Source of the DNA: an uncultured Candidatus Saccharibacteria bacterium
GTDB lineage: Bacteria > Patescibacteriota > Minisyncoccia > Portnoybacterales > UBA2143
Reading direction: 5' to 3'
Length of the DNA stretch: 64,000 nucleotides
Assembly: GCA_964594155.1 (NCBI GenBank)
Contig: CAZQLH010000002.1
Span: 44,324 to 108,323 of the forward strand
Positions 2,473 through 48,985 of the stretch are shown piece after piece. A program made the translations under genes and the position numbers. The notes below the pieces were generated by a model. That model was given only the letters and a program-made list of their open reading frames with translations, made no database searches and was not told the origin of the DNA. Position 1 is the stretch's first letter. The number at the start of each line of letters is the position of its first letter.

Positions 2473-2557
2473 GGAAGAGTCGGATAACGGTATTCCAGCA
2501 GCTTGCTAAGCTGTCGCCCTTTTGGGCTTGCGGGTTCGAATCCCGCCTCTTCCGCCA
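2473..2557 (+). tRNA. tRNA-Ser (anticodon GCT)
   Basis: Cloverleaf read by eye: acceptor GGAAGAG/CTCTTCC, 3-bp D stem, anticodon loop TTGCTAA, long variable arm, GTTCGAAT T-loop and encoded CCA. Confidence 0.85.
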
Positions 2558-2558
2558 G

Positions 2559-2999
2559 ATGACTATTCAAAATACAATAAATAAAGTATTGCCTATTTTT
2601 AACTCTTATCCAGAAATAAAACTGGTTTATTTTTTTGGTTCAAAAATAACAAATAAAACAGGGTCATTGAGCGATTATGACTTTGCTGTCTATTTAGATA
2701 AAAAAAATAAAAAAAAGCTATTTGAAATTAAAATAAAATTATTAAATCAAATAAGCGATGTTTTAAAAACTGATAAAGTTGATATTGTTATTCTAAACAC
2801 AGTTGAACAACCAGAATTAAAATACAATATAATCAAACAAGGAAAATTAATTCTTGAAAAAGAACCTTTTAAAATTTTAATTGAACCAAAAATCCTAAAT
2901 GAATATTTTGATTTTCGAACTCTACTTTTAAAATATAATTTAACAAAACCTATATATGGAGAGGTTAGATTACGCAGCGAATCTCTCTTTCTTTATTAA
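2559..2999 (+). CDS. Nucleotidyltransferase-domain protein (MNT-like minimal nucleotidyltransferase)
   Basis: FFGS...GSLSDYDFAVYLD matches the GS-x(9-13)-DxD nucleotidyltransferase signature. The start abuts the tRNA. Confidence 0.6.
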   Translation: MTIQNTINKVLPIFNSYPEIKLVYFFGSKITNKTGSLSDYDFAVYLDKKNKKKLFEIKIKLLNQISDVLKTDKVDIVILNTVEQPELKYNIIKQGKLILEKEPFKILIEPKILNEYFDFRTLLLKYNLTKPIYGEVRLRSESLFLY

Positions 3000-3036
3000 T
3001 TTTCATATTAAAACTTTTTTAATTTATAATAAAAAA

Positions 3037-3921
3037 ATGTCTAGCCTAATAATTAAGAATAATAAAATTATTTGTGCCATCCCGCTTACAGGCGCTACAA
3101 GCAAAATCAGAGTAAAAAAACGTATTAATAATTTTGGAAACCCAGTTTCAGTAAAAAAGAATCCTTTTACTGATGATTTTTATATTGAATGGCAGATATC
3201 TTATTTTCTTCCTTTTGATAAAATTTGGGATAATTATAGAAAGGCAAAAAATAAAAAAGTAAGACTAAAAATTATTAATGATCTTTCTTTAAATTATAAA
3301 AACAAGAATGTTGTTTCTGCTTTAAAAAATTTTATACAAAATAATAAGATAAATAGCAAAAAAGAGTTTAAAAATAAATTAGAAAATATCTTTAAAAAAC
3401 ATAATGAAACAATAATAAAAAAAGAACATAAAAACGATAATATTTATGTTCGTTATGAGTTAGCTGATATGTTCAAATTTGCTCTAGAAAATAATTTAAT
3501 AAACAAAAAAGAAATTAAGAGTTTAATAGGTTTTAATCAAGATAAAACTCTTGATATTGAAAAGCAATATAAAATTATCAGAACATCTGTTAATAAAAAG
3601 ATTTATAATAAATTTGAGTATTATGAAGAAAAGACACCATTATTTATAAATAAAATAAATGAAAATAATTTTGTAGAGATTATCTTAGAACATAAACAAC
3701 GTGCTGTTGGATATCAAAGTATGATTTATTTTTGCTCTTATATTAAAAATTTATTTGATGATAAAGAACAGTCGATTATTGGCAGAACAGCTAAATCTAA
3801 TGAGATTATATACCTACCCATAGGAAAAGAAGATCTAGTTAATATTGCTGAAAGTTTTATGGTTGCCTCTCAAGATCATCTTTGGGATATGAAAAAAATA
3901 TTAAATGATATTATTAAATAA
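3037..3921 (+). CDS. Hypothetical protein (294 aa) and a candidate unrecognised nuclease/defense component
   Basis: ORF with an ATG at 3037 in frame with the track ORF. No motif recognised. It is convergent and tail-overlapping with the gamma-class MTase. Confidence 0.45.
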   Translation: MSSLIIKNNKIICAIPLTGATSKIRVKKRINNFGNPVSVKKNPFTDDFYIEWQISYFLPFDKIWDNYRKAKNKKVRLKIINDLSLNYKNKNVVSALKNFIQNNKINSKKEFKNKLENIFKKHNETIIKKEHKNDNIYVRYELADMFKFALENNLINKKEIKSLIGFNQDKTLDIEKQYKIIRTSVNKKIYNKFEYYEEKTPLFINKINENNFVEIILEHKQRAVGYQSMIYFCSYIKNLFDDKEQSIIGRTAKSNEIIYLPIGKEDLVNIAESFMVASQDHLWDMKKILNDIIK

Positions 3922-5044
3922 TAACTTTAAAGTTATAAATATCCTCTTTTTTAATTGATTTACTGCCTACTCGGCAAGTGATATTTCTAAAATAATCAAT
4001 TCTTTCGTTAATTTGTTTACAGATAATTTCTTTTATCTGTTTATTTTTTTTATATTGATCTTGGACATCAAAAACGTAAAACATATCATTTAGAATATCT
4101 TCCCTTGCATTAACTAAACCACATTTTCCTACGCTTGCATTTCCCACTCGAACTACTGCAATTTTATAATCCTCAATTGTTTTGCCTAATGGAATTTTGT
4201 TTTTTGCAAGAATATTTTTAGCTGAAATATTGTTTTCTTTGTATGATTTTTGGACTTTTATGTTTTTACTTTCAAAATATTTATTTAACGGAACGCCTTT
4301 ATCATTTTCAACATATCCATTATTTTTATGAAAAATTACTTGTGGAATTAATTCTTCATTAAATTTATCTATATTAAATACTTCCTCATTCTTAATGCTG
4401 TTTTCGTATATTATAATTATTTTATCTTTTAATTTTTCGATATTAGCAAATATAGCAAAGCAACAAGGTATATTTCTATCAAACCAAATTTTATCATTTT
4501 GATAAACAATAATTGATGAAAAATATTTTAAAATTTCAATTTTAATATTTTTATTTTTATTTTTTATGAAGAAAGAAATAGGCAAAACAAAACCAATGGA
4601 AGAATTTTCATTTTTTAAATGCTTTAATGATTTTAATATAAAAGCATTTTCAATTTTTTCTTTTTCTTTTTTCATTTCTATCTTTGTTAAATAATCAATT
4701 AGCGAGACTTCTGATTTTAAATAATTTTTTGGAAAAAAATAACTTTCTTTTAGATTATACTTGCTAAACGGAGGGTTGCCCACAATAAAATCATATTTAT
4801 TTTGGACTGATAGATTAAAAAAATCAGATGGTTTTTTTGTTAATTCTGGGTCTATTTCACAATCATTAGTATTTTTAAATCCTTTTTCTTTTAAAACTCT
4901 AACAAAATTACCTGTTCCAGATGAAGGTTCTAATATTTTTATATTTTCATTGTATTTTTTATAACTAAATAATAAATCTAATAGTTTTTTAACTATTTCG
5001 ATTTTCGTAAAATATTGACCTAAAATTTCTTGTTTATTTATCAT
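3914..5044 (-). CDS. N6-adenine DNA methyltransferase, gamma-class (M.TaqI-like)
   Basis: GQYFT, ILEPSSGTGNF (motif I) preceding VGNPPFSKY (motif IV NPPF), with a C-terminal TRD-like region. Confidence 0.8.
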   Translation of the reverse strand: MINKQEILGQYFTKIEIVKKLLDLLFSYKKYNENIKILEPSSGTGNFVRVLKEKGFKNTNDCEIDPELTKKPSDFFNLSVQNKYDFIVGNPPFSKYNLKESYFFPKNYLKSEVSLIDYLTKIEMKKEKEKIENAFILKSLKHLKNENSSIGFVLPISFFIKNKNKNIKIEILKYFSSIIVYQNDKIWFDRNIPCCFAIFANIEKLKDKIIIIYENSIKNEEVFNIDKFNEELIPQVIFHKNNGYVENDKGVPLNKYFESKNIKVQKSYKENNISAKNILAKNKIPLGKTIEDYKIAVVRVGNASVGKCGLVNAREDILNDMFYVFDVQDQYKKNKQIKEIICKQINERIDYFRNITCRVGSKSIKKEDIYNFKVII

Positions 5045-5685: not shown

Positions 5686-5890
5686 GTTTTTTAGTTTTTA
5701 AGATTTTTATTAAATCTTCACCCTTAAATCTCCTCAGACCATTAAATTTAATTGAAGGTATTTTATTCTCGGCAATATATCTTTTAATAGTGACTGGCGA
5801 AACCTTTAAAATTTCAGCCACTTCTTCAGTAGTATAAATTTGATTTTTATCCACAGTCATAGTAATATTGAAAGTATCAATTAGTATCAT
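5666..5890 (-). CDS. Excisionase/MerR-type HTH DNA-binding protein (possible controller)
   Basis: 74 aa. EEVAEILKVSPVTIKRYIAENKIPSIKFNGLRRF resembles an HTH_17 excisionase-family domain. It overlaps the MTase by 20 nt, suggesting an operon. Confidence 0.6.
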   Translation of the reverse strand: MILIDTFNITMTVDKNQIYTTEEVAEILKVSPVTIKRYIAENKIPSIKFNGLRRFKGEDLIKILKTKKHGKKLG

Positions 5891-5943
5891 ATTTAGTATA
5901 ACATATCTTATGTCAAAAGGGAAAAGAAAAACTGATTTTAAAT

Positions 5944-21736: not shown

Positions 21737-21826
21737 ATTTTAATAATAAGTTATTAAATCTAAAAAATCAATAAAAATAGGGGGCTTGTTTATTAAGCCC
21801 CCTATAATAGCTAACGTCTTATGACG

Positions 21827-23233
21827 CTAAAGCTTTTTGACCAACCAGTGTTTTGGATCCCAGATATTAGGATCAAAATTATACTGGTTGATTCTCGGCA
21901 ATCTGAGATTGATTGACGGATAAATCACAAAATCCAGTTTATCAGCGCCAAATACATGCTTAATCAGAGAAAAAAGACGATCATTCCGAATCTGATGCAT
22001 GTATGAATCCGGACCTTCAAGAAGATATTTATGCATATACCTGCCGCTAAGATGGTATGATTTCCCGTTTTTGGATGTTAATAATCCAATTAATACAATG
22101 AAAAAATGGGAATCCAAAACCAATCTGACTTTTCGGCTAATTTTATGTCCAGGATTATCCTGAATCTGAGCCAACTCGGAAAAAGTCTGAAAAGCGTTTT
22201 CAGGAGCGTCAATCAGCTTAAACTCGACTTCTTTAAAAGAAGAACTGGTGTATGTTGCAATGCCTTTGTAGATTTCTCTCAGCCGATATGTTAATCCTTT
22301 TTCGTCTATTAAACGGTAATATCTTTCCGGATCTTTCTCAGCAATAATCCCAAGGATTTCCAGTATTTTATCTTTTCCTATTCTATCCAGCAGAAACTTA
22401 CTGGAAAGAATGCAATTTGAAAAAATACTCCTTGTTGCTGTCACATGAAAATTAAAGGGAGATGACGATTCCTGGGCCAAATCGCGAAAGTCGCCAAAAT
22501 CAATCTGATTCAACGCTTTGGAATCCCATTCCGCATAAGGACCCCAAATTTCATCAGATGATTTAGGAGATATTCTTTTGTCATTAAACATCCCTACATT
22601 GTCTGATTTCTCCTTAAACTCATGCAAGATAACCGGAACGCCTGTTGCTGACGGAACCAACATAACTGGAGAATCCCAAGTGCCAATATGGCCAGACCTG
22701 ACAATTCCTTTTTCAATAGCTGCGCTGAAAGACCCCATGTTTTTGCCGTCCTTTACTGAAAAATCATAAGATGATTTTCTATTTGGATCTATCCCGTAAG
22801 GCCAGAAAAAATAATTGCCTGATCTATCGCGCCAATTTTGCCCATGAATGATCCATGACCCGATGATGTTATTAGCAACTGACAAAGATTTACGCTCCTT
22901 AAACCTATGTCTTTTGTTGTTTCTGGAAACAGGGATAACACACATCTCGCCATCGCAAACATGCTTAAGGCTAAAACTTTCCGCGTCTTCTAAAAACAAT
23001 CCTTCCTTAACGCCAATCTTTAGAACAAATTCCCGCTCTTCTCCAGTGTTATTAAGTATAACCTTGCCTATACAAACTCCTTCTTTCCATTGCCCGAAAT
23101 CTCTAACATTGAAACATGGAGAAATCCTAGGATGAGCAATTTGCCTTAAAACTTCTTCAGCAAATCCTCCTGGCATTGCGGAAATAACATTGATAATTTG
23201 TTCTCCTGGAATCAATCCTCCTTTTGCTTTCAT
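21827..23233 (-). CDS. Hypothetical protein (468 aa) with visibly higher GC and different codon usage than its neighbours
   Basis: Long clean ORF and no motif recognised. The nucleotide composition is roughly 40% GC against about 33% for flanking genes, judged by eye. Confidence 0.5.
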   Translation of the reverse strand: MKAKGGLIPGEQIINVISAMPGGFAEEVLRQIAHPRISPCFNVRDFGQWKEGVCIGKVILNNTGEEREFVLKIGVKEGLFLEDAESFSLKHVCDGEMCVIPVSRNNKRHRFKERKSLSVANNIIGSWIIHGQNWRDRSGNYFFWPYGIDPNRKSSYDFSVKDGKNMGSFSAAIEKGIVRSGHIGTWDSPVMLVPSATGVPVILHEFKEKSDNVGMFNDKRISPKSSDEIWGPYAEWDSKALNQIDFGDFRDLAQESSSPFNFHVTATRSIFSNCILSSKFLLDRIGKDKILEILGIIAEKDPERYYRLIDEKGLTYRLREIYKGIATYTSSSFKEVEFKLIDAPENAFQTFSELAQIQDNPGHKISRKVRLVLDSHFFIVLIGLLTSKNGKSYHLSGRYMHKYLLEGPDSYMHQIRNDRLFSLIKHVFGADKLDFVIYPSINLRLPRINQYNFDPNIWDPKHWLVKKL

Positions 23234-23493
23234 AATACCTCCTTTTTGTAATAAGATTTTAAAGAGCTATATTTCTAAAACAAAAAACCGGCCTAATCAG
23301 ACCGACTTTGATTTAATGAAAATGTTTTCTGTGCTAAGTTATTCTAATTTCCCCTAAATCAAAACCGGTCTGGCTAAACCAGATAAAAGCAATTACTAAC
23401 AAATAATAGGCTTTGATTAAAGTATCCATAATATAGGTTAATCTTAATAAATTACTCATTAACTGTCAAATTATTTTATCCACAGTATATTGG

Positions 23494-23577
23494 TGCGGAC
23501 GGTGGGAGTTGAACCCACACGAGATTACTCTCACTAGGTCCTAAACCTAGCGCGTCTGCCAATTCCGCCACGTCCGC
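23494..23577 (-). tRNA. tRNA-Leu (anticodon TAG)
   Basis: Reverse complement has acceptor GCGGACG/CGTCCGC, anticodon stem CTAGG/CCTAG, loop TTTAGGA, a long variable arm and GTTCAACT. Confidence 0.8.
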
Positions 23578-25816: not shown

Positions 25817-26158
25817 CTATCCCGTTACTAAAGTTTTCACTATAGCTACTAATCCTTTAGCTAAAACAGCTACACCAACACCAACTAAAGCATATATTAA
25901 AGTTTTTCTAGCATTATCTAGTTTATCTGAATCTCCAGCAGCTGTCATCCAACCAAAACCAGCATAAATAATCATAAACGCGGCTACTGCTATAAGAATA
26001 GCAAATGCCCAATCTACTATTTTATCTATAATATCAATCAAACCTTCTATATTCGTAGGCCCTGTAGGTGCTGTGTCTACTCTAGCAACAACAGGCAAAA
26101 CAAAAACTCCAAAAACCAATACTAAAGACAAAATCCAAACAATTCTATTTTTCATCAA
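25817..26158 (-). CDS. Small secreted/membrane protein, VirB2/TrbC-pilin-like (paralog 1 of 3)
   Basis: Signal peptide plus two hydrophobic helices, with a shared IIYAGF...A.KTLxYALVG core. Confidence 0.5.
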   Translation of the reverse strand: MMKNRIVWILSLVLVFGVFVLPVVARVDTAPTGPTNIEGLIDIIDKIVDWAFAILIAVAAFMIIYAGFGWMTAAGDSDKLDNARKTLIYALVGVGVAVLAKGLVAIVKTLVTG

Positions 26159-26184
26159 TTTTCACCCCCTTTCATTTTAATAAC

Positions 26185-26553
26185 TTATTTAACTCCAAGA
26201 AGTTCTTTTAGCATATAAACAAAACCCTCGCCTATCACTAATATTAATAATCCAACTAAAGCATATGTTAAAGTCTTTTTAGCTTTAGTAATTTCTTCAT
26301 CTCTGCCAGCAGAAAACATATATAAAAAACCAGCATAAATAATCATAAGCACAGCTACTGCTTCGCCAACTCTAATAAGCCATCCAATAATATTTTTAAC
26401 TAATGTTGTAAAATCTTTTGCATTGAGCGGATTTTGTAATGTTCCAGACCATCCTCCTGCTCCTGTTCCATTAGTAGCCAAAACAAAAACTGGCAAGCAT
26501 AATGATATCAACATGATAACCAAAGAAATTTTTTTAAAATTATTTTTATTCAT
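26185..26553 (-). CDS. Small secreted/membrane protein, VirB2/TrbC-pilin-like (paralog 2 of 3)
   Basis: MIIYAGFLYMFSAGRDEEITKAKKTLTYALVGL parallels paralog 1. Confidence 0.5.
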   Translation of the reverse strand: MNKNNFKKISLVIMLISLCLPVFVLATNGTGAGGWSGTLQNPLNAKDFTTLVKNIIGWLIRVGEAVAVLMIIYAGFLYMFSAGRDEEITKAKKTLTYALVGLLILVIGEGFVYMLKELLGVK

Positions 26554-26555
26554 AT

Positions 26556-26963
26556 TTATTTACAAATAGGAAATTTATTCCAAGCCCCGCTAAATGTTCC
26601 TACAGCAATAGTTTTAAGCAATGTATCAATTAAAAGCCAACTACAGAAAATAATGACTAACCCAGTAACTGTATTAGTAAAAATACTTCTAGCCAAATCA
26701 ACTCTGTCCTGACTGCCGCCAGAAGTCAATAAAATAACACCAGATGCAGCAAATAAAAGCGCGCCTATTGGAATAGCTAAATTAAAACTAATAAAATTAA
26801 TGACATTACTAGCTAAATGCCATAAATCACAAAGATCACAAGGATTTTTTTCACTACCACAAGGAACAAGCGGATCTGTAACAATGCCAGCCAAAGCCAA
26901 ATTAGCGCTAAATAATCCAATTAATAATAAGGAACTAATTATAATTTTTTGATAAAATTTCAT
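26556..26963 (-). CDS. Small secreted/membrane protein with a Cys-rich N-terminal segment (divergent paralog 3)
   Basis: Signal peptide, CGSEKNPCDLCDLW, and two hydrophobic helices. Confidence 0.45.
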   Translation of the reverse strand: MKFYQKIIISSLLLIGLFSANLALAGIVTDPLVPCGSEKNPCDLCDLWHLASNVINFISFNLAIPIGALLFAASGVILLTSGGSQDRVDLARSIFTNTVTGLVIIFCSWLLIDTLLKTIAVGTFSGAWNKFPICK

Positions 26964-45955: not shown

Positions 45956-47863
45956 TTATTCTTTTGTTCGGTAATGCTCCTCAATAATTTTGTGTCCGGT
46001 TGCAACGAGTTCATGATATCCATGATTTGCTCTTGGGTCTTCGCTCATATTGTGAACATGGCGATCATCAAAGCCAAGTAAATCACCTTCTTTTTCTGAT
46101 GTGTCGGCTTGCCCGATGTTATGTCTAGTTTGAAATTCGTGAATAGCGGTTGTTGGAGTGCCGTCATAGAAAACAAGATGTTTTGGTTTTTCGTCTGGGT
46201 GTTGTTCAAAATATGTTTCCCAATATTCTTTGGCTGTTATAGTGTTTTCTGCCCTTTTCCAGTTTGCACTGGCAGATAGTAATATGGATCGCGCAGCATC
46301 TTCTTCTGTTTGATCTCCATAACTCCATTTGTTGCCCTTGTACAAATACATGCCTATTTTGTCGTTTGATAAAGTCTCATTTACTACATCTTCTGCCGTT
46401 TCTTCATCGAAGCCGAGTGCAATCATTTCTTCTCTCATAACACTAATAAAATCTCTTAGCATATTCTGTCGTTTTGAATAATCTCTTTCGTCTGAATATG
46501 CTTTGTACGCTTTTATAGACGGTGATTCTTCCGTTAAGCTCGTTGCCCACACAACAAAGGCAGAAACAAGTTTTTCGTCTTCCACCATGACTCTTTTTGC
46601 CTCACCATCGATTGTTTTAATTTCGGAAGCATATTTTGAGCCGGTTTGCGGGTCAACGGGTGTGTTCTCGGGAAGAAAAACTACACCTGCGTCAACTGGA
46701 ATCCCTGGATTGTCTAGTGTTGCAGGCCATACAAAAACATCGTTCCATTTTGTTTCACTTTGCGGTTTTGTGAAGTCCTTTTCCCAGCCATTGAAAGCAT
46801 AGTCATGTTGTGATGCCAGAACGTCAGAGGGGTACAAAAAGAAAACCTCGTTACTTTTTTCACCACCATAATATCCGTCAGCCACTATTTGAGCGGCAAA
46901 ATGGACAGCGGTTTTGTCGGGATAATTTGGAGCAGTTGCAAGTGAATGATTGAGTTGAGCGTTGAGCCGTTTCTTAGCTTCCTCCTCGTCTTCTGCTTGT
47001 AGCGCCCAATCTTCAACAAATTTTTGTATGGATGCTTCATCTCTTGCGAGCAAACCATCTCGGACTGCCATTGGTGGACGAAGCAGTTTTTGATCTCGCA
47101 ATACGCTCGTTAATCCATCGTGAAATTCCTGCAAACCAGCAGAGTGATAGACCATAGCGTTATGATCTCGAAATCCTTGTCGGGTAACATGCGAAAGAAA
47201 ATGCGGATTCAGCCTGCGCCATAGAGCAATGTATTCTTCCGTGCTAAGTTCGGCAAGCACTTCTGGACGAAGTAGTTCTCGTTTTTCTGAGTTCGACAAT
47301 GGCATTGTTTCCATTTTGGCGTAGTACGCTTCAAGCATTTTTTCTGGGTTGGGCAACTCTGCTTGTTTTTGAGCAAGTTTTTCTAATTCATCACGAAGTG
47401 CAAAAGCTTGTGAAGTAAGTTCTTCCATTTCAGCGTCCATTGTTGCGATTTCTGTTTGCATCTCTGCCGCTGATTTGTCCTTGATGCGGAAAAGTTTTTT
47501 GAGTCGTGTGGCAATTGTTTCAAGTCGTTGTTCCAATGCCAAAACTTTTTCAGCTTTGAGTGCGTCCAGTTCTCTAGCTTTTTGTTCTTTTTGTCCGAAC
47601 GATTCTGATTTTCCAGCAATACCTTCACCAACTGTGGCTGCACGTGTTCTCACCTCTGAAATTTCAGCTTCAACAGTTTGACGACCTTCGATGTCGTATT
47701 TTTGAGATATAGCGTGAGGGTCAAGCAAAGTACGTTTAATTTGCTCAATAGTTTGAGCAACAACTTCGGTTGTTTCTTGTGCAGTCTCAGCTTCTGGCGT
47801 GGGTTCGCCAGTAGGTTTTTCGGCGTGAGCTTGTTGTGTGTGTCTTTGTTCTTGGTTATCCAT
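45956..47863 (-). CDS. Hypothetical protein (635 aa) with a coiled-coil N-terminal half, strongly GC-rich and compositionally foreign
   Basis: About 45-50% GC by eye against about 33% for neighbours. The protein is rich in E/A/Q/T/R and poor in K/N/I, unlike the rest of the window. No motif recognised. Confidence 0.55.
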   Translation of the reverse strand: MDNQEQRHTQQAHAEKPTGEPTPEAETAQETTEVVAQTIEQIKRTLLDPHAISQKYDIEGRQTVEAEISEVRTRAATVGEGIAGKSESFGQKEQKARELDALKAEKVLALEQRLETIATRLKKLFRIKDKSAAEMQTEIATMDAEMEELTSQAFALRDELEKLAQKQAELPNPEKMLEAYYAKMETMPLSNSEKRELLRPEVLAELSTEEYIALWRRLNPHFLSHVTRQGFRDHNAMVYHSAGLQEFHDGLTSVLRDQKLLRPPMAVRDGLLARDEASIQKFVEDWALQAEDEEEAKKRLNAQLNHSLATAPNYPDKTAVHFAAQIVADGYYGGEKSNEVFFLYPSDVLASQHDYAFNGWEKDFTKPQSETKWNDVFVWPATLDNPGIPVDAGVVFLPENTPVDPQTGSKYASEIKTIDGEAKRVMVEDEKLVSAFVVWATSLTEESPSIKAYKAYSDERDYSKRQNMLRDFISVMREEMIALGFDEETAEDVVNETLSNDKIGMYLYKGNKWSYGDQTEEDAARSILLSASANWKRAENTITAKEYWETYFEQHPDEKPKHLVFYDGTPTTAIHEFQTRHNIGQADTSEKEGDLLGFDDRHVHNMSEDPRANHGYHELVATGHKIIEEHYRTKE

Positions 47864-48169: not shown

Positions 48170-48985
48170 ATGCAAGAATATTTAATCCAAACAAAAAACG
48201 AACTAAAATTAAGAAACTACAGCATAAGAACAATAAAAAGTTATCTTTTGTGCTTAAAAGAATATTTTTCTTTTATTGAAAAAGATTTTGAAAAATTAAA
48301 TGTTGATCAAATAAGAAAATTTCTCTTAAAAAAACAAGAAAAAGGATATGCTCCTCAAACAATTAATCTTTATCTTAACTCAATAAAATTCTTTTATCGT
48401 GAAATTATTAAATCTTCTAATAATATAGATCTTAAATTCGCTAAAACAAATAAAAGATTGCCTGTTATTTTATCTCGGAAAGAAATTAAAAAAATTACAG
48501 AAAAAATAAAAAATAAAAAACATAAATTGATTATCTCTTTAACTTATGGGGCTGGTTTAAGAATCAGCGAAATAATTAATCTTAAAGTAAAAGATATTAA
48601 TTTAGAAGAATTAACTATTCATATTAAACAAGCTAAAGGCAAACAAGATAGAATCACTATATTCCCTGAAATACTAAAAAAAGATATTGGCATCTTAATT
48701 GCTTTAAAAGATATGAATAACTATATTTTTGAGAGTAATCGGGGCGGCAAACTATCTATGGGTTCTCTTCAGCAAATATTTAAAAAGGCGTTAAAATTAT
48801 CAAAAATTAAAAAACAGGCTACTTTTCATTCTCTACGACATAGTTTTGCCACTCACCTATTAGAAAATGGAACTGATGTTCGCTATGTCCAAGAATTATT
48901 AGGCCATCAAAATATTAGAACAACTCAAATATATACTAAAGTTACCAATCCTAGTCTTAAAAACATTAAAAGCCCTTTTAATTAA
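48170..48985 (+). CDS. Tyrosine site-specific recombinase (XerC/XerD/phage-integrase family)
   Basis: C-terminal HSLRHSFATHLLENGTDVRYVQELLGHQNIRTTQIYTKV carries the R...HxxR...Y catalytic residues; 271 aa. Confidence 0.8.
   Translation: MQEYLIQTKNELKLRNYSIRTIKSYLLCLKEYFSFIEKDFEKLNVDQIRKFLLKKQEKGYAPQTINLYLNSIKFFYREIIKSSNNIDLKFAKTNKRLPVILSRKEIKKITEKIKNKKHKLIISLTYGAGLRISEIINLKVKDINLEELTIHIKQAKGKQDRITIFPEILKKDIGILIALKDMNNYIFESNRGGKLSMGSLQQIFKKALKLSKIKKQATFHSLRHSFATHLLENGTDVRYVQELLGHQNIRTTQIYTKVTNPSLKNIKSPFN

Follow-up and report, generated by a model that had tools for sequence, protein, structure and literature searches.

In a 64,000 nt stretch of the genome of an uncultured Candidatus Saccharibacteria bacterium (contig CAZQLH010000002.1; hereafter the window), a gene encoding a 468-aa protein lies beside a tRNA-Leu gene and, judging from comparison with related loci, is one of many alternative cargo genes found behind a conserved regulatory module. 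We consider it probable that a promoter, a small leader open reading frame (ORF) lacking a Shine-Dalgarno (SD) sequence, an RNA switch, the 468-aa gene and a terminator constitute a single regulated unit, in which a ribosome-mediated attenuator gates a variable cargo slot. The components of this reading differ in strength. We have considerable confidence in the leader as a conserved element with two states, terminator and antiterminator; that a ribosome selects between the two states is the interpretation we favour; and that the leader senses the supply of hydrophobic or aromatic amino acids is a tentative suggestion of which we are doubtful. An earlier, first-pass annotation of the region had viewed the gene as a candidate horizontal acquisition of unknown function, inserted at the tRNA.

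The placement of the 468-aa ORF next to tRNA-Leu(TAG) in that annotation was correct (Table 1), and the approximately 260 nt it estimated between the two genes measure 257 nt. Although described as non-coding, this spacer contains a conserved 31-codon ORF (23429-23334) within which, and beyond which, extends a conserved RNA switch. The leader is preceded by a sigma-70-type promoter, the sole promoter-like site for the 468-aa ORF after the tRNA on that strand, and the ATG of the small ORF lies 11 nt past the -10 hexamer and has no SD sequence. Four segments with alternative pairing potential follow. The small ORF spans segments 1 and 2, segment 1 is able to pair with either segment 2 or segment 4, and segments 2 and 3 form an 18 bp helix that constitutes the minimum-energy fold (z = -3.3) and holds the stop codon of the small ORF in its apical loop. 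A terminator scan flags not only the hairpin formed by segments 3 and 4 but also hairpin 1:2 as terminator-like. The aaccgg(c/t)ct direct repeats previously remarked upon in the spacer are indeed present, at 23363-23371 and 23286-23294, where the first forms part of segment 2 and the second part of segment 4; they are alike because both segments pair with segment 3. A single 9-mer repeat in 260 nt is not significant alone, with about 0.3 expected by chance by our estimate, and derives its meaning from being conserved across loci.

Approximately 38 nt separate the T-run of the 3:4 terminator from the SD sequence of the 468-aa gene, and these contain no promoter-like site. As this leaves no room for a separate promoter after the terminator, the gene is predicted to be expressed by read-through only. 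The same interval includes a conserved motif, RGTTCTTTRAAA, which may be an anti-SD sequence: pairing with the SD sequence of the cargo gene is predicted in the window and in loci L006 and L013, with weak z-scores, and the motif is located 0-20 nt past the terminator in L012, L019, L021, L026 and others. No leader model exists in Rfam, the best matches being to miRNA models at around 22 bits, against gathering scores of 76-95, such that only the tRNA passes; a covariance model built for the leader, R1, finds a single copy in the window.

Table 1. Features of the flagged region, in window coordinates
Feature	Position	Strand	Basis and details
tRNA-Leu promoter-like site	23614-23585		Promoter scan; the tRNA's own
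tRNA-Leu (anticodon TAG)	23491..23577	minus	ARAGORN; Rfam tRNA model, 58.8 bits
Leader promoter	23441..23469	minus	-35 TTGACA 23469-23464, 17-nt spacer, -10 TAAGAT 23446-23441; 10/12 matches
Leader ORF, MDTLIKAYYLLVIAFIWFSQTGFDLGEIRIT	23334..23429	minus	Predicted; 31 codons and stop
Hairpin 1:2	23369..23383	minus	Segment 1, TCTGG (23383-23379), pairs with the CCAGA that opens segment 2
Segment 2, CCAGACCGGTTTTGATTTA	23355..23373	minus	5' arm of antiterminator; inverted repeat, minimum free energy fold and pair counts
Segment 3, TAAATCAAAGTCGGTCTG	23298..23315	minus	Pairs with segment 2 (antiterminator) or segment 4 (terminator)
Segment 4, AGGCCGGTTTTTT	23282..23294	minus	3' arm of intrinsic terminator
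3:4 terminator hairpin	23309-23284	minus	Terminator scan; 11 pairs, then T-run
Motif GCTCTTTAAAA (consensus RGTTCTTTRAAA)	23257..23267	minus	Conserved; past the terminator
468-aa ORF	21827..23233	minus	ORF call; SD AAGGAGG at 23244-23238
Intrinsic terminator closing the transcription unit	21770..21805	minus	Terminator scan; GGGGGCTT...AAGCCCCC and T-run; 11 pairs, 6 of them G-C

The spacer is more conserved than the ORF it precedes. The leader is approximately 90% identical to that of L006 (by eye, alignment A3), while leader and gene taken together are 77% identical by blastn and the proteins 72% identical. A homologous small ORF within the same layout was found at every locus with a homolog of the 468-aa gene and enough upstream DNA, and all ten such family loci carry the leader, the leader preceding a family gene in L004, L006, L009, L012, L013, L001, L003 and L016; in the last of these, detected with covariance model R1, a PALP-family gene sits between the two. 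A diverged leader, likewise detected with R1, in which GGGGAGG replaces AGACCGG as a wholly different G/C core, precedes the gene for P0099, a stand-alone version of the protein's N-terminal domain, and keeps both the ORF and the 2:3 / 3:4 layout. An exact pattern for segments 1-2 matched 16 loci in GTDB genomes, 14 of them real: seven are from Candidatus Moraniibacteriota, one each from Paceibacterota, the 'Patescibacteria group' and 'Saccharibacteria', and four carry no lineage name. The remaining two, in Mucilaginibacter, are the number expected by chance and were discarded. In the metagenomes 27 stretches matched; three were set aside because an in-frame ATG ORF was lacking or ran to 63 codons, leaving 24 as leaders. 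Altogether about 40 distinct Patescibacteria leaders are available, with a promoter at the same place in about 40.

A small ORF, encoding a peptide of 25-38 aa, is present in all leaders. When 90 nt around segments 1-2 are read in all three frames, that of the leader is free of stop codons in all 41 elements analysed, whereas each of the other two is open in only 9-10, and indels relative to the L009 leader are multiples of 3. Thirty-six of the 41 have the ATG 6-22 nt past the -10 hexamer: in eight this distance is 6 nt, which implies a leaderless mRNA, and in the other 28 it is 11-22 nt, with no clear SD sequence in those inspected. Leaders may also occur in tandem, since covariance model R1 identifies second copies 1-2 kb apart in many loci (a second copy in L019, L020, L036, L043, L047, L054, L055, L059 and L060, and a total of two copies in L051 and L058). 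The order is often a 'TCTTGAT/ATCAAGG' subtype followed by a 'TCTGG/CCAGA' subtype, and further conserved inverted repeats, for example TCCTATCATT...AATGATAGGGA, lie downstream of the tandem leaders.

The two folds open to the leader RNA, hairpin 1:2 with terminator 3:4 or helix 2:3 extended by 1:4, are predicted to be mutually exclusive, and both bear the marks of conservation. Structures were counted in a 33-sequence alignment (A4), in which the 5' arm is partly fixed by the search pattern. RNAalifold recovers the 2:3 plus 1:4 state unprompted; standard pairs fill 95.5% of its cells, a share that drops to 58% if the partner is shifted by one column, and 23 cells are changed on both sides. 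Helix 2:3 by itself comprises 16 pairs with 95.6% of cells paired. For instance, pair 22-95 appears as UA in 15 sequences, CG in 11 and UG in 7, and pair 31-86 as GC in 21, AU in 6 and GU in 6. In the 1:2 plus 3:4 state, 91.5% of cells are paired (96% in hairpin 1:2), with compensatory changes at six of the 11 terminator pairs. All 33 leaders have a terminator hairpin complete with A-tract and U-tract, at -9 to -18.5 kcal/mol, and in every one the 2:3 fold is the more stable, having a mean of -27 kcal/mol compared with around -20 kcal/mol for 1:2 plus 3:4. As the search pattern limited the 5' arm only, the matching 3' arms represent independent evidence.

Changes in the peptide follow those in the RNA. 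In a second leader subtype (model R1), TGG/CAG is replaced by TTG/AAG, altering the peptide from Trp to Leu and from Gln to Lys while the 1:2 stem is kept, with U-A in place of G-C. Likewise a change of ACC to ATC, substituting Ile for Thr, has its counterpart in segment 3, where GGT becomes GAT. These co-changes of partner bases indicate that conservation of the peptide motif 'W..Q[TI]GF' is dictated by RNA pairing. The N-terminal half of the peptide is conserved as hydrophobic and aromatic character: in the ten positions that precede segment 2, Phe accounts for 25%, Ile for 20%, Leu for 14% and Trp for 9%, and one leader subtype has YSFYFFSFWF.

The arrangement suggests a mechanism in which a ribosome moving quickly through segment 2 to the stop codon would block helix 2:3, permitting the 3:4 terminator to form and turning the gene off, while slow progress, a stall among the Phe/Ile/Leu-rich codons that precede segment 1, or the lack of any ribosome would leave 2:3 free to form and allow read-through. 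Given that 2:3 is the more stable and that 1:2 is no longer than 5 bp, a leader that is translated slowly or not at all should fold as the antiterminator, with the gene on. Hairpin 1:2 and the U-rich UUUUGAUUU could act as a pause site that synchronises ribosome and polymerase. The variable sensed would then be the speed of translation over codons for Phe, Ile, Leu and Tyr, as affected either by amino-acid supply or by ribosome-targeting compounds. On weaker grounds than those for the switch itself, the signal is likely to be translation stress, probably a scarcity of hydrophobic or aromatic aminoacyl-tRNA.

Several points weigh against this interpretation. The leader has no run of a single codon of the kind found in trpL, pheL and hisL, and its composition would equally fit a transmembrane helix. 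The stop codon is positioned 15-22 nt past segment 2, so a ribosome at the stop may not cover segment 2, making its occlusion an argued step. As the cargo is mostly of unassigned function, no coherent regulon backs the proposed signal. Finally, the leader sequences are related, so shuffle controls overstate significance, and the 5' arm was partly preset by the search pattern.

The same small ORF could instead encode a functional small membrane protein, whether acting alone, as the partner or substrate of an enzyme in the manner of a ribosomally synthesised and post-translationally modified peptide (RiPP), or as a type I toxin, with the hairpins representing 3' structure of its mRNA and a leaky terminator setting the ratio of products. 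The peptide does resemble a single-pass membrane peptide, in running from a polar N-terminus through some 19 hydrophobic residues to a basic C-terminus, and gene callers annotate the ORF. A precursor gene, leaky terminator and enzyme gene is also the layout of lantibiotic operons, and ATP-grasp and peptidase genes are among the cargo. However, the same class of peptide is found before at least 12 unrelated gene families and, in L001 and L003, a tRNA gene; its best-conserved residues (W, Q, T/I, G and F) fall on the arms of the RNA structure and track the partner base; the residues past segment 2 vary in both sequence and length; and a plain terminator has no need of a conserved, mutually exclusive 2:3 helix. 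We therefore regard this explanation as unlikely, though a leader peptide may have a dual role, both regulatory and functional. The particular version in which a RiPP precursor is served by a dedicated enzyme was rejected, no specific enzyme partner being found and the conserved residues following RNA pairing.

If the leader is an attenuator, what it attenuates differs greatly from one locus to another. At least 12 cargo families follow it, mutually unrelated by BLAST and hhalign, the latter also detecting no homology between any of them and the 468-aa family. Most of the cargo proteins have no Pfam match; those that can be recognised include an ATP-grasp protein (PDB 7r8p, E = 1.7e-5), M20 and M28 peptidases, a class I/II aminotransferase, and HAD and PIG-L enzymes. 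A defence-island interpretation was discarded, as the cargo proteins lack PADLOC matches. The boundaries are sharp: in pairwise blastn comparisons, homology between loci ends +113 to +115 from segment 1, just past the terminator at RGTTCTTTRAAA, and restarts in the next housekeeping gene (bipA or VanW), the cargo between being wholly different. For example, the slot typical of Moraniibacteriota, downstream of rpoD or upstream of bipA (with both flanks present in L012 and L019), can hold the 468-aa gene, a 104-114-aa gene, a 277-aa gene with an aminotransferase or a 323-aa gene with an M28 peptidase. No conserved motif was detected 3' of the cargo gene, where there are individual terminators only; each homolog of the 468-aa gene is, like the window copy with its strong terminator at 21805-21777, trailed by a terminator hairpin. 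The base composition of the cargo is mixed, the G+C content at third codon positions (GC3) exceeding that of the flanks in 13/23 cases, with a median z of 0.5 and extremes of up to 6-9.

In L001 and L003 a tRNA-Arg gene occupies the position approximately 15 nt past the T-run of the leader (5866-5941 and 5743-5818, respectively). These tRNA genes are apparently transcribed by read-through only, and, despite being orthologous, have different anticodons, TCT and ACG.

It is conceivable that the leader defines a cassette slot, in which Patescibacteria exchange, by recombination, varied single genes or short operons induced by translation stress, including the gene for the 468-aa protein with its new fold, behind a promoter-attenuator, with RGTTCTTTRAAA as the junction, in an integrase-free but integron-like manner; this is speculative and quite improbable.

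The view that the 468-aa ORF is a recent foreign gene integrated at the tRNA-Leu, with the repeats in the spacer as remnants of attachment sites, was prompted in part by its composition, which is indeed unusual. The window is AT-rich, at around 32% GC, and has the look of a Patescibacteria genome; the ORF has a GC content of 0.385 and a GC3 of 0.352. Per-gene GC3, recommended as a check on the first-pass annotation, placed the ORF first among the 57 non-overlapping window ORFs of at least 100 aa (mean 0.225, standard deviation 0.047; z = 2.7), in agreement with the claim that it is richer in G+C than its flanks, whose identification as Nif3 and SPFH protein genes was also borne out. The rarity and patchiness of the family and the adjoining tRNA gene are further features that integration would explain, and the gene's GC3 is similarly above that of its neighbours in homologs from other AT-rich hosts (for instance, z = 5.7 in L001, and 0.299 against 0.169 in L006). 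Yet an excess that recurs in L006, L009 and L001 is hard to reconcile with recent arrival; a GC3 that stays high despite long residence could reflect selection on codon use or repeated replacement of alleles.

The other hallmarks of integration are missing. The direct repeat of the tRNA 3' end that might have been expected on the far side of the gene was sought and not found: there is no tRNA-derived k-mer of at least 10 nt, on either strand, within 15-32 kb, and a generic repeat finder returned only AT-rich chance matches and no tRNA repeat. Between the leader and Nif3 there is only one ORF. No integrase was found near the 468-aa gene, the sole example among the window ORFs scanned, which did not include every intervening ORF, being 25 kb away. 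Searches of IMG/VR found neither a relative of the 468-aa protein nor the leader pattern in viral contigs, and both of the supposed attachment-site remnants are working arms of conserved hairpins.

Gene order points in the same direction. The L006 and L008 contigs, which carry a 72%-identical homolog, start within the same tRNA-Leu and continue with the spacer, the gene and a convergent VanW gene, and the order of leader, gene and VanW is kept in L009, with a 60%-identical homolog. VanW itself is 86% identical to the window copy in L006 and 61% in L009, such that the flank has diverged to a similar or lesser extent than the gene; this shared order and these identities imply that the gene has been at the locus since before the lineages of the window, L006 and L009 split. 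By contrast, the more distant L032, in which VanW is 55% identical, has three unrelated genes at the window's own site. Although L006-type loci share the tRNA-Leu of the window, and L001 and L003 have tRNA-Arg after the leader, a tRNA gene adjoins the leader in just one of 28 further loci scanned; what accompanies the family throughout is the leader element and not a tRNA. Thus the proposal of horizontal acquisition stands as regards atypical composition and a replaceable cargo gene, but not as regards the tRNA, and while the composition is atypical for the window, orthologs are nevertheless present at the same locus in L006/L008 and L009. Patchy distribution and atypical composition are better explained by the gene being variable cargo than by tRNA-targeted insertion, which we judge very unlikely. 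A better candidate for a tRNA-adjacent acquired islet is found elsewhere in the window, where a very AT-rich block at 2473-5044 (GC 0.22, z of about -2.4) directly follows tRNA-Ser(GCT) (2473-2557) and contains genes for a Pol-beta-type nucleotidyltransferase (2559-2999) and an R.Pab1-like restriction endonuclease (2956-3921), as well as a 376-aa ORF (3914-5044, minus strand).

Least probable of all is an RNA-only switch, either a riboswitch or the target of an RNA-binding protein, with the ORF incidental: two conserved alternative structures with a terminator as expression platform, a conserved motif past that terminator and absence from Rfam could mark a new class. Against this, sequence conservation 5' of segment 1 is low, with no conserved structure and with length varying only in steps of 3 nt; 41/41 elements have the frame open, compared with around 10/41 for the other frames; the spacing between the -10 hexamer and the ATG is short and fixed, in many cases placing the ATG where transcription is expected to start; and there are no aptamer-like conserved loops.

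The protein encoded by the window's cargo gene belongs to a previously undescribed family. It is not the orphan it was first taken for, as a word-indexed search identified 20 relatives, the best of them 74% identical and named 'hypothetical protein, Patescibacteria group bacterium', and an exhaustive phmmer search of 1.84 billion representatives yielded 83 clusters at 50% identity, all family members being of Patescibacteria type. Further alignment-based homolog searches added almost no new members. The earlier failure to place any motif in the protein was upheld, with Pfam, NCBIfam, PHROGs and PADLOC returning nothing at E values up to 1. The remote homology search and structure prediction that had been advised were likewise run: a PDB sequence search produced noise only, and an AlphaFold2 (AF2) model with a mean predicted local distance difference test score of 88.7 had no Foldseek match at E ≤ 0.001 in PDB or BFVD. 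A 65-residue match to a segment of ribosomal protein S6, from a profile search of PDB (E = 0.011), was taken as chance.

Two domains can be distinguished, an N-terminal one at approximately residues 1-155 and a C-terminal one at approximately 165-468. The former is found alone in proteins of 165-190 aa with Arg/Lys-rich tails (P0045-P0086) and fused to other C-terminal domains in at least two proteins, P0064 and P0090, which share the N-terminal domain only; the C-terminal module (approximately 170-450) occurs separately or at the N-terminus of long proteins. By eye, the C-terminal halves of P0064 and P0090 appeared similar to ATP-grasp, an impression that neither Pfam nor PDB bore out. Among the invariant residues are H130, G131, W134, P145, G147, G184, E205 and P259, and a set of invariant or nearly invariant residues made up of H130, H182, E205, H263, D310, D374, R304, R307, R370 and R416 gives the impression of an enzyme. 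The 468-aa protein may be described, by inference, as cytoplasmic and enzyme-like, belonging to a rare family of two-domain proteins that is confined to Patescibacteria. Its genes occupy at least four different chromosomal sites, where their recurring neighbours are an M19 dipeptidase and an arginase downstream, or PALP upstream; with the nature of the other cargo, this suggests, at low confidence, a link to amino-acid or peptide metabolism.

Two further features of the window merit description. A tyrosine recombinase, with Phage_integrase and SAM-like N-terminal domains, is encoded at 48170-48985 (GC 0.246) beside a GC-rich 635-aa ORF (45956-47863; GC 0.423, and 0.586 at first codon positions) that has no Pfam match. 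Three successive small genes of the T4SS_pilin / TrbC-VirB2 type (113, 122 and 135 aa) are found on the minus strand at 25817-26963, around 2.2 kb from the flagged region and upstream of it on that strand.

Patescibacteria, also termed the Candidate Phyla Radiation, are mostly uncultured and have tiny genomes; to our knowledge, few regulators have been identified in them and their gene regulation has been little studied. The leader element is neither in Rfam nor among the top full-text matches on attenuation or riboswitches in Patescibacteria or the Candidate Phyla Radiation. Were our interpretation correct, this leader-peptide attenuator, often present in multiple copies per genome, would be among the first cis-regulatory systems described for these bacteria, and would place a regulon of at least 12 uncharacterised families, the 468-aa family included, under one signal, such that an inducer of read-through would offer a practical route to the functions of the cargo. 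It would also mean that leader ORFs that are leaderless and lack an SD sequence can serve classical ribosome-mediated attenuation, far from model organisms. The sharp replacement of cargo suggests how reduced genomes might recruit accessory genes to ready-made regulation. For annotation of the window, an 'orphan beside a tRNA' becomes a defined transcription unit.

A number of known systems share part of this organisation. Genomic islands adjacent to tRNA genes have in common with it atypical composition, the neighbouring tRNA and patchy cargo; here, however, both an integrase and a duplicated tRNA 3' end are lacking, diverged relatives have the same gene order, and what recurs as the junction is the leader. 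Integron cassettes and hotspot islets likewise consist of variable genes behind a conserved structured element, with sharp breakpoints and tandem repeats of element and gene. Unlike in integrons, the ORF listings and Pfam tables of the loci include no integrase, although no search was aimed at one, and there is no attC-type site; moreover, the leader brings its own promoter, small ORF and terminator.

Leader-peptide systems that choose between terminator and antiterminator in response to antibiotics have been described (PMC4191407, PMC4335068). Systems such as bmrB-bmrCD, mef/mel(msrD) and the erm leaders are alike in that translation of the leader selects terminator or antiterminator, and in controlling diverse, often mobile, genes. 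By contrast, Pfam scans recognise no resistance gene in the cargo described here, the peptides have no known arrest motif, and the leader is tandemly duplicated within genomes.

The closest parallel in architecture is with the enterobacterial attenuators trpL, pheL, ilvL/ivbL, leuL, hisL and thrL, which have an upstream ORF of approximately 15-35 codons, four segments forming either 1:2 with the 3:4 terminator or the 2:3 antiterminator, and a U-rich run after 1:2 that resembles a pause site. The hydrophobic leader peptide, at 31-38 aa, is similar to the 32-aa leader of ilvGMEDA, which is rich in Ile, Leu and Val. The Patescibacteria leader differs in having no run of one regulatory codon, in being leaderless or SD-less, in the position of its stop codon, which is in the 2:3 loop after segment 2 and not before it, and in its short 1:2 hairpin of only 5 bp, through which the untranslated default is probably on; and where the enterobacterial leaders govern biosynthetic operons, this one stands, in Patescibacteria, before many unrelated genes.

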